Of a stretch of DNA of 64,000 bases, positions 15,001 to 18,000 are shown in pieces. Position 1 is the first letter of the stretch, and the number at the start of each line of letters is the position of its first letter. This DNA comes from a plasmid: sequence record NZ_CP118990.1. The stretch is one strand, 5' to 3'. A program made the position numbers.

Positions 15001-18000
15001 TCTGGCTACGGCGATCTGAGTTCGGAACGCGCCTACCTACGTGGCGAAACATTCTCGTGTGTACGTGAGGACGGTGGGGTGATCGAGGCGAAGCTCGATG
15101 CTTATGCGGTCGGTGAGGATGGTAAGGCTGGGGTTCGTGGCCGAGTGGTATCCAAACAGGGCCAGATTATAGCCAAATCCATGATGGCCGGTTTTTTGAG
15201 CGGTGTCTCTGAGGCATTCGACGTCAACCCAGTACCGGTTGTCAGTACAAACCCTGGTTCAAATACCCAGTATCAGTCGGTTTGGTCTGAGGACATGGTT
15301 CAGGGCGCTGCGGCCAAGGGTGCCAGCAAGGCCTTGGATCGCATCGCGCAGTTCTACATCGACATGGCCGAAGGGATTTTCCCGGTTATCGAGATCGATG
15401 CAGGCCGCCAATTGGACGTAATCATGACCAAGGGCACTAAGTTGCAAATCCGTTCGACCGGGGAGAGCCAGAAAAAATGAGCATTGTGACCAAAATGGGC
15501 AGTTTCACAGACGAGATTCGACTAGGGCTGAGAGTAGGATCTCTCAGACTGTTGGGGGTCGGTGCTGCAATCATGCTGCTCGCGGGGTGTTCATCACTCA
15601 ATATCGGGGAGGAGGAATACAGCTGTCCAGGTATGCCAAACGGTGTGCAGTGTATGTCTGCTCGGGATGTTTACGCCGCAACCAACGATGGGAATGTCCC
15701 TCGTCCGATGAAGGAAGATGAGGCCAAAGCGAAGGGGGAGGGCCAAGCCACCCCCTCGGCCGGAGCCACGAGCACATCTGGAGACCCGGTAATTGACACG
15801 TATGTCGCTCCGCGTTTGCCGGATCGCCCAATTCCCATTCGCACACCAGCGCAGGTGATGCGGATCTGGGTAGCTCCCTGGGAGGACACCAACGGTGACC
15901 TCATCGTAACGGGGTATGTCTACACGGAGATTGAACCGCGCAGATGGGTGATCGGGGATGGTACACCCGAAAACGAGCCGGTGTTGAGACCGCTGCAATC
16001 CGTGCAGCACGAACCGAAAACGGAAACAACCACAACAAAGTAGGAGATGTTCTGAATGAACATGAATGTAAGTCATACAGGTCCGGTGGCGAATGCCTCC
16101 GCGGTAAACAAAAACAACGCGCTCTTCCTCCTGATGGGACTGGTGGCGGTGGCTCTCGTGCTGGCGCCGGATTCCGTCCACGCAGGCACTGGCGGGACTG
16201 CGTTTGATGATGTCTGGACCACCCTCAAAGACTGGACGCAGGGTACCCTCGGTCGAATCGTTGCTGGTGCCATGATCCTGGTTGGTGTTGTCGGTGGAAT
16301 CGCTCGCCAGAGCCTGATGGCATTCGCCATGGGTATCGGTGGTGGGATGGGGCTGTACAACTCCCCGACAGTGGTTGAGTCGATCATGTCTGCAACACTG
16401 GAACATGCCGACAAGATCGCCCCGGCCGCAATCCACCTCACCAATGGGCTTGGGGGCTAAGGCACCATCACTCGCCAGACACATGAAGGAATAGGGCAGC
16501 CAGTGGGCTGCCCTATTTTTTCATCAACAGCCAAATATTTTTCTCAATGTACTCAAAACGGACACAAACACAGCCGGTCTTTCAAAGGCGCGTCCCGTAA
16601 TCTCCATTTTGGGTTCGTGTAACCTTTAAATGGAGAGTGTGATGTTAAAACACAAATTGAAATTACCAGCCTTGCTGGGAGCCCTGGGGGCTATTTTCAC
16701 GGGAACAGCCCAAGCAGAGTTGTTGCAGTATTCCTTTACTGCTCCGGGGGGGGCACAAAGGACGTTAGCGGCGACTGCCAACTATGCCAACCCGACGGGT
16801 AACATTCGATTCGCTTTGAGTGCAGGTATTGACCGTAAGGTCAAAATCTCGGTGCTGCGAACGGATGGTACCTTGGTCTCTACAGTAACCAGTCATCTGT
16901 TGGGGGCGGCCGACCGGATCACTGTAGGCGGCAGCACCTACTATGGTGCAGAGTTGCAACTAGCCGCACCGGTTGCGGGTACCTATAAGCTCAAAGCAGA
17001 GATTTTATCTGCGGCCGGGGCTTCGGTTCAGGCGGATGAGTATCCCCTGACTGTTGATGTCACCGCTCCGACATATGCGTCAGTGGCACCAGAAGCAAGT
17101 AATTATGGGCAAGTCACCACTGGTACCCTCTGGAAGCTGGGTATTGGAGGGGCCGAAGAGAACGCCTTCAAGCTCACCGGTATCAGCGATAGTACGCCGG
17201 TAACAAGCGTCAAAGCGAAGCTGTACAGGCAGGATGGTTCGTTATATCGAAATGTCGCTATTCCTTACGATGCAGCCAACCATGAGGCGCGAAAGCCGTT
17301 CGAAAGCGGATTTTTCCCTAACTCTGATCTGGATGAACAGTTCACTCTCCAGTTCGAAATCGCAGATAGTGCTGGAAACACAACGCTGACGGACGCGCAA
17401 AAAGTGATGTTTGATAACGTCACCAATGCCCCTACCGCACCATTTGGTGTCTTTGACCCCAACAGCTCAAATATCCTGGCGCCGGGGTTGACCGGGTTTG
17501 TGTCTTATACCGATGGTATGACGGTGAAAACAAACCCAATCAAACTGGCGTGGCGTGTGCCGCGTAATAACTGGCATGAATACCGGGAGGGCGGGATCAA
17601 TATGGTCAATGCCCTCGGTCAGATGACCAAGGCCGGTGAAGATAGTCAGTATGTCTACCTAATCACAACTTCCCCCTACGGGCACACTGATGGGAACTAC
17701 TGGCGCTGGGTCAACTTCGGGCAGTGGGGGGGGGGGGTTATTGATTACGATTTGGTCCTATCCCCCTCTGCCCCCAAAAGCCCCAGATTGCTGGGAGTAG
17801 ACTACAACTACAGCGACATCGGTTGGTCCACGATGCTGCGATATTACGTCATGAATAGCTCGCTGCCGCTCACAGTAAGTAGCATCAGGGTTAATGTAGA
17901 GGCAAGACCCTATGTGCAAACGGCTGTGCACCGGGGTAGCTGTAGTGTCCCTGCGGGACAAACGAGCTGTGTCATAGCCAACAGCTTTACCATGGCAAAG

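Follow-up and report, generated by a model that had tools for sequence, protein, structure and literature searches.

The Big-protein gene and its poly-G tract

The stretch of DNA analysed here (the window) comprises 64,000 nucleotides (nt) of a plasmid, sequence record NZ_CP118990.1. Its transfer region contains a gene for a giant, putatively secreted immunoglobulin-like (Ig-like, "Big") protein, at 16630-22128 on the plus strand, and within this gene lies a homopolymer of 12 G residues (G12; 17726-17737, plus strand) whose length varies between copies of the gene that are otherwise identical, and which is likely to serve as an ON/OFF switch for the full-length protein. The open reading frame (ORF) encodes 1832 amino acids (aa) from the first ATG and 1828 aa from the ATG at 16642, which is the start annotated in relatives. 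Pfam matches are found to DUF4165 (residues 27-145), Big_3_2 (146-263), Big_3_3 (550-701) and PKD (1586-1653), a Sec-type signal peptide (…TGTAQA/E) is visible in the protein sequence, and an orthologue on IncC plasmids shares 79% aa identity over 298/300 residues compared. The length of 1832 aa also matches the gene name orf1832 used in the IncC literature. Because of these domains, the signal peptide, the IncC orthologue and the length, the gene, described in preliminary form as "adhesin A", is best regarded as the Aeromonas member of the plasmid Big-protein family (orf1832 type), encoding a putative conjugation accessory surface protein, and its name is better replaced by orf1832-type Big protein.

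The position of the gene is in keeping with its being an orf1832 homologue. Positions 1-22128 of the window share 99-99.7% identity with the transfer region of pAsa4-like Aeromonas plasmids, which are typed MOBH/MPF_F and include pAsmA and pA (A. salmonicida RZ6S-1), pAsa4, pAsa4b, pAsa4c, pS44-1 and A. caviae plasmids. The gene order in the window is mobH, traD, ORF 8018-8602, a DUF4400 gene, traL-E-K-B-V-A and the Big-protein gene, which in the relatives is followed by dsbC-traC (traV-traA-gene-dsbC-traC).

Another member of this family has been described from the IncA/C plasmid pKAZ3 (Hüttener et al. 2022, PMC8730810). It has 1843 aa with Big 3_2, Big 3_3 and DUF4165 domains and was detected among the secreted proteins; when it is deleted, liquid conjugation falls sharply at 25 C, and not at 37 C (PMC8730810). 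The related RSP proteins of R27, an IncHI plasmid, attach to flagella and to the conjugative pilus (PMC8730810). Secretion and a role in low-temperature conjugation have been demonstrated only for the pKAZ3 and R27 proteins, and would extend to the Aeromonas protein by analogy.

The plasmid backbone is met in further hosts. Annotations from "Serratia sp. IR-2025" and Klebsiella quasipneumoniae include an 1828-aa Big protein (P0036) and a 194-aa protein of the ORF-8018 type (P0053), each of which shares a 90%-identity cluster with Aeromonas proteins; Aeromonas is therefore not the only host of the backbone.

The G12 tract is read as TGG GGG GGG GGG GTT, that is W-G-G-G-V, at codons 366-370 of ORF 16630-22128, and the window allele, with its 12 G, is in frame (ON). 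A second long tract, of 10 G residues (G10; 8384-8393, plus strand), is read as AGT GGG GGG GGG GCC (S-G-G-G-A) in ORF 8018-8602 and is likewise in frame. Shorter runs on the same strand are a G8 at 16746-16753, in the same Big-protein gene as G12, and G7 runs at 14143-14149 (end of traK) and 60394-60400 (in a paralogue, gene B, described below). All these coordinates, and the in-frame state of every tract, had been given in the preliminary description and were read again in the sequence; further G7 runs at 42195 and 46399 had not been listed there, and the 58% guanine-plus-cytosine (GC) content that it assumed is replaced by a computed 52.4% for the window (~53% locally). From base composition, 0.01 G runs of at least 12 and 0.14 G runs of at least 10 are expected per 64 kb, and the presence of two runs of at least 10 in 64 kb is unlikely by composition.

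Length variation at the G12 tract

Comparison of tract lengths across isolates had been put forward earlier as a check on the candidate tracts, and it gave a positive result for both long ones (G12 and G10). Among ten complete pAsa4-like plasmids the tract is G12 in eight and G11 in two (CP049831 and pS44-1), and in both of the G11 records the Big-protein gene has no annotated coding sequence. Strain RZ6S-1 has been assembled twice (CP049831 and CP050188), and over 24.5 kb the sole difference between the assemblies is G11 against G12.

The frameshift products predicted for several N-terminal alleles were then sought as exact matches in a collection of 15 billion public proteins. Products of G11 (385 aa) were matched for four alleles, namely P0014 (pAsa4c type), P0015 (pAsa4b type), P0016 (KAM339 type) and P0018 (window type), with P0014 indexed in 37 collection blocks and P0018 present on a single contig; products of G13 (367 aa) were matched for two alleles (P0017, P0021), as were products of G10 (366 aa; P0071, P0072). 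Exact look-up in this collection returned no G14 product, and the full-length product of the window itself is not in it. DNA pattern scans of genome and metagenome contigs for the tract with its flanks gave no match, and a homology search with the first 500 aa gave only distant relatives among the matches listed. When lengths were read directly in DNA, G11 was found in L020-L026 and L036, G13 in L027-L029 and G10 in L030-L035. Alleles of the full 1828 aa are common as well, among them P0033 (17 contigs) and P0034 (24 contigs), and contigs out of frame at the G12 site make up about one third of those seen, in what is a non-random sample.

The relation of tract length to ancestry was examined by a haplotype test on 35 sequences, with 2.0 kb of the gene compared and the tract masked. 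Ten haplotypes were distinguished, five of which occur with two or more tract lengths (11/12, 12/13, 10/11, 10/11 and 10/11/12), and the 2 kb compared are free of any further indel. L020 (G11) and L030 (G10) show 0 mismatches in 7158 nt outside the tract, and pAsa4c (G12) differs from L030 (G10) by 1 mismatch in 8129 nt. Since several lengths are found on identical haplotypes with no other indel, the tract changes far faster than any other position, and the length differences, as far as these sequences tell, reflect recurrent change at the tract and not shared ancestry. The frequency of non-modal lengths rises with tract length, from 0 at the G8 and at the G7 at 14143, through ~4% at the G10 (18 of ~450), to about one third at the G12, all in biased samples.

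Consequences of a length change

A tract of 11 G (likewise of 8 or 14) leads translation to a TAG stop at 17798-17800 (plus strand), giving 389 aa (385 aa from the annotated start), and a tract of 10 or 13 G leads it to a TGA stop at 17742-17744 (plus strand), which ends the product at 370 or 371 aa (366 or 367 aa when counted from the annotated start). These off products keep the signal peptide, DUF4165, Big_3_2 and about 100 more residues, and lose the C-terminal ~1450 aa with Big_3_3 and PKD. Gene callers report exactly the truncated products predicted for the shifted tracts; in off alleles they also give a downstream ORF of 1378-1478 aa, which is predicted to be without a signal peptide. 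As a result the same gene is called intact, or split into a "DUF4165 protein" and an "Ig-like protein", or a pseudogene, and tract length is the only cause of these differing annotations.

The rest of the gene is preserved. All five off alleles that could be read end to end (L002, L005, L030, L031 and L034) regain an unbroken ORF of 1828 codons when 12 G are restored in the tract, and the ratio of nonsynonymous to synonymous substitution rates (dN/dS) is 0.064-0.078 in every comparison, off alleles included. Because the reset ORFs are intact and dN/dS is near 0.07, the gene is not decaying. Strong purifying selection together with recurrent frameshifts limited to one repeat is what contingency loci, and not pseudogenes, usually show.

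The G10 tract and the shorter runs

ORF 8018-8602 (plus strand) lies between traD and a DUF4400/DtrJ-like gene and encodes 194 aa; its UniRef name is "Conjugative transfer protein 234" and no Pfam domain was found in it. It had been described before as a gene of an integrative and conjugative element (ICE), whereas the backbone in which it sits is that of an IncA/C-like plasmid. The last 44 nt of the ORF are shared with the start of the DUF4400/DtrJ-like gene (8559-9188), and a frameshift at the G10 might disturb translational coupling to that gene.

The tract at 8384 is G10 in all close plasmid relatives; at the homologous site pAhD4-1 has G7 (GGGGGGGAT) and IncC plasmids have no run (AGT GGC GGT GAT). 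By exact look-up the in-frame 194-aa product is found on more than 430 contigs, that of G9 on ~12 and that of G11 on ~6, with the variants on both alleles. They were confirmed in DNA as G9 in L055-L060 and G11 in L050-L054, and ~4% are out of frame. The two in-frame 194-aa proteins P0047 and P0048 are encoded on contigs of 5.07 and 4.84 Mb, which suggests that some Aeromonas genomes carry chromosomally integrated copies of the transfer region.

The shorter runs behave differently from the two long tracts. The length of the G8 at 16746 is constant in all loci read, with GGGGGGAG (a synonymous G>A change) in several relatives, and the G7 at 14143 is constant in all relatives read, so that these two runs are too short to act as switches. 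The comparison covered the short runs for which relatives were available, which was not the case for the G7 of gene B, a gene already split by an insertion. The proposal that the poly-G tracts are phase-variation candidates is thus upheld for the G12, with G10 to G13 on identical flanks, and at low frequency for the G10, with G9 and G11, and falls for the two invariant runs, G8 at 16746 and G7 at 14143.

Origin of the tract

Lineages share the W-G-G-G motif and encode it with different codons, namely TGG GGG GGA GGC GGT in IncC plasmids (longest run G7), TGG GGG GGG GGC GTG in pAhD4-1 (G10) and TGG GGG GGG GGG GTT in the pAsa4 lineage (G12). Because the motif is kept while the codons vary, the long tract is taken to be lineage-specific and to have lengthened stepwise through synonymous changes.

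Comparison with pAhD4-1 (L009) places a boundary at the tract. Identity with the window is 95-99% from ~16200 to the last G of the tract, ~80% from 17736 on and ~80-88% upstream of 16200, and the synonymous divergence dS rises from 0.047 on the 5' side of the tract to 0.73 on its 3' side. From this jump in identity and dS a recombined block of 1.5 kb would end exactly at the poly-G, and the G12 tract may additionally be a recombination hot spot.

Sequencing error as an explanation

Several points weigh against reading the tract as a switch, and the first of them concern the length calls themselves. According to one rival explanation, which the preliminary description had named as platform error, the true length of the tract is fixed, and reads of G10, G11 or G13 in the assemblies stem from homopolymer errors of sequencing or assembly. 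Long homopolymers are error-prone on all platforms, GCA_029436615.1 and GCA_001901975.1 show -1 at both long tracts at once, the former with an extra indel in traB too, and the two assemblies of RZ6S-1 disagree with each other; some length calls may be errors, and a few assemblies are suspect. However, platform error fails to explain the bulk of the variation. L020, L026 and L030 belong to effluent metagenomes that one study sequenced on the Illumina HiSeq2500 (PRJEB12083; PMC5437528), many further variants occur in short-read contigs of unrelated projects, and changes of -2 and +1 occur, of which -2 is unlikely as a consensus error. Other homopolymers stay constant in the same contigs: the G8 and G7 runs are unchanged in contigs with variant lengths at the G12 site, the second tract is still G10 in L030 and L032, whose G12 site varies, and A8, A7 and G6 runs are unchanged in contigs where the 8384 tract varies. 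Identical calls also recur across independent samples (13 similar places for L020). Taken with these data, an artefact is very unlikely to account for the length differences. The frequencies given above are nevertheless biased, as the loci were fetched by looking up off products.

Gene loss, recoding or a switch

The remaining points against a switch concern the gene and the tract as such, and they speak for a rival that we regard as unlikely and yet serious, namely that the tract is a non-adaptive mutational hot spot, at which slippage is real but leads to one-way loss of a dispensable or costly gene, the off alleles being young pseudogenes. The same gene is inactivated by the insertion sequence (IS) ISAs1 in pAsa4 and pAsa4b, paralogue B of the window is split by an IS-bounded insert, and pAsa4b, with its IS-disrupted copy, still conjugates on agar at 18 C (PMC5088629); since this plasmid transfers with a disrupted copy, loss of the Big protein is tolerated and the protein is nonessential on agar. 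Contractions dominate, with G11 and G10 far outnumbering G13, and in-frame G9 and G15 are absent among the cluster members listed, the exact sequences of G9 and G15 having not been looked up.

The tract is also less striking once codon usage is considered. GGG makes up 32% of the Gly codons of the Big-protein gene, and when its synonymous codons were shuffled, with the W-G-G-G motif given, a run of at least 12 appeared in 3.6% of trials. The rarity claimed earlier for such homopolymers thus holds against base composition and much less against codon usage; the existence of the G12 tract is only mildly improbable, and the real evidence is its measured instability. With this shuffle result, and with IncC orthologues that are without a long tract, there is no evidence that the tract was selected for its mutability.

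Against one-way loss stand the state and the distribution of the off alleles, none of which has a second lesion and which show dN/dS of ~0.07 like the others. Off and on alleles share identical haplotypes in several lineages, whereas final loss would predict clades of decaying copies. Independently of the poly-G, the gene is also inactivated in pHX3 (L011, A. veronii), where its homologue is broken at another place and annotated in separate parts (713, 1114 and 1127 aa).

A third rival, which we consider extremely improbable, is recoding, whereby transcriptional slippage or ribosomal frameshifting would restore the full-length protein from G11 or G13, or give two products from G12, so that changes of length in the DNA would be of little consequence. 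RNA-polymerase slippage is possible on long homopolymers in general, and an ATG-started ORF of 1478 aa in the G10/G13 frame overlaps the end of the truncated ORF. However, the tract has no stimulatory structure or known shift site, a restart product would be without a signal peptide, and no evidence was obtained for recoding. Formation of a G-quadruplex at the tract was rejected on general grounds, as there is a single G run without partner runs.

The reading that we favour, and hold to be likely, is that the G12 tract is a hypermutable simple-sequence repeat (SSR) in the 5' fifth of a functional monocistronic Big gene, and that it forms a heritable, probably reversible ON/OFF switch. The sequences show the length polymorphism, its effect on the frame and the intact, selectively constrained remainder of the gene; slippage as the mechanism, reversibility and any benefit from switching are inferred. 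In such a switch, strand slippage during replication would add or remove single G residues at the tract; with 12 G, the state of the window, the 1828/1832-aa protein would be made (ON), while 11 G would bring translation to the TAG, and 10 or 13 G to the TGA, described above. The off frames would then yield only an N-terminal fragment of 366-389 aa with the signal peptide, DUF4165 and Big_3_2. The G10 tract in ORF 8018-8602 would act alike, at about ten-fold lower frequency.

Transcription unit around the Big-protein gene

The Big-protein gene is flanked by two hairpins on the plus strand. A strong hairpin with a T run 3' of traA (16494-16521; -29.5 kcal/mol, z = -7.8) is a likely terminator, and likely separates the traLEKBVA operon from the Big-protein gene; directly 3' of the latter lies an intrinsic-terminator-like hairpin (22149-22180; -16 kcal/mol, z = -6.2). 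The gene therefore looks monocistronic, and because it is flanked in this way a frameshift in it should not be polar on downstream genes. A polar effect on downstream tra genes as the main effect of a length change was rejected, as a strong terminator follows the gene.

The upstream region at 16553-16629 (plus strand) has conserved counterparts in pAhD4-1, at IncC orf1832 and at the gene-B fragment, and probably contains a promoter or activator box and a ribosome-binding site. A motif is common to the upstream regions of the Big-protein gene (16553-16629), the gene-B fragment (22196-22282), the pAhD4-1 gene and IncC orf1832, with the blocks GCTCAAAA-GG-CAC…CACAG and TCCCGTAA-CT-CA…TTGGGTTC-TGTAAC, followed by AATGGAGA. 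We take this motif to be possibly a binding site of a transfer activator of the AcaCD type.

Paralogue B and the remainder of the window

A second Big paralogue, gene B (described earlier as "adhesin B"), is present in two parts, at 22283-22918 and 59093-64000. Its N-terminal DUF4165 fragment ends in …YETYWIG and the remainder resumes with …DWIGGTKDG, and because these ends join, the two pieces appear to be one gene. Similarity to the Big-protein gene at the DNA level is found only in the last 3.5 kb (88%). That gene B carries the same switch was considered and rejected, as both the W-G-G-G motif and a poly-G are absent from the homologous site.

The insert in gene B, of ~36 kb, is bracketed by two ISAs1-family elements (22873-24128 and 57769-59024), which are in direct orientation and 92.8% identical, and by its structure it resembles a composite transposon. 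Within this IS-bounded insert lies a low-GC block (35-42%; 40000-52000) on the minus strand, and the adjacent segment at ~52480-56860 (50-55% GC) has 76% identity with polysaccharide export/ABC-transporter (capsule-type) clusters of Enterobacteriaceae plasmids. At the other end of the window, mobH shows a 9-nt in-frame length difference at ~5590 between the window and its relatives L012, L013 and L015. The RefSeq starts of mobH differ (3098 and 3185) between two assemblies of one strain whose DNA is identical there.

Relation to known systems and significance

The mechanism proposed for the G12 tract would be classical slipped-strand mispairing at an intragenic poly-G; the setting, a Big protein on an IncA/C-like conjugative plasmid of Aeromonas, is new within the literature searched. 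To our knowledge, Aeromonas is not a genus known for SSR phasomes. In the shufflon of the IncI1 plasmid R64, site-specific DNA inversion swaps the tips of PilV. Like the shufflon, the Big-protein gene would be a device of a conjugative plasmid that varies a mating surface protein; it would do so by slippage and as a simple on/off change.

The closest resemblance in the repeat itself is to the SSR contingency loci hmbR/hpuAB of Neisseria meningitidis (PMC3786947) and to the Campylobacter phasome (PMC6321876), with which the Big-protein gene shares an intragenic poly-G in a gene for a surface or secreted protein, a frame shift by one unit, several lengths per background and an otherwise intact ORF. 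Unlike these loci, it resides on a conjugative plasmid in an Aeromonas host, and encodes a putative conjugation accessory protein. A high-frequency length switch at a poly-G in a mismatch-repair-proficient gammaproteobacterium has been described for rmpA of hypervirulent Klebsiella pneumoniae (bioRxiv 10.1101/2025.09.12.675794); the target there is a capsule regulator, as opposed to the conjugation protein considered here.

With respect to the protein, the closest relatives are the plasmid Big proteins RSP and RSP2 (IncHI1 R27), ALG87338.1 (IncA/C pKAZ3) and orf1832/orf1847 (IncC), which have the same DUF4165, Big_3_2 and Big_3_3 domains, the same size (1828-1843 aa) and the same place in a transfer region of MOBH/MPF_F type, beside traA, which encodes the pilin (PMC6764697, PMC8730810). 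The Aeromonas gene differs from the IncC orthologues, which have only G7 at the homologous W-G-G-G codons. No description of phase variation of any plasmid Big protein was found in the literature searched.

The G12 tract thus provides a clear, sequence-backed case of a hypervariable SSR borne by a conjugative plasmid. In aquaculture and in clinics alike, antibiotic resistance is carried to a major extent by plasmids of the IncA/C type, whose Big proteins have been proposed as vaccine or nanobody targets against plasmid spread (PMC11268884). Tentatively, and with doubt, one may go further and suggest that Aeromonas IncA/C-like plasmids carry a contingency locus of their own, slipping at the G12 and more weakly at the G10, by which the plasmid would hedge its bets between horizontal and vertical transmission. 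Some cells would then display the Big protein and transfer well in cold liquid habitats, and other cells would avoid the cost of the protein and exposure to phages, predators and fish immunity. If high-frequency switching to the off state indeed takes place, cells of one clone would differ in how efficiently they transfer the plasmid, and interventions aimed at the Big protein would select pre-existing off variants.

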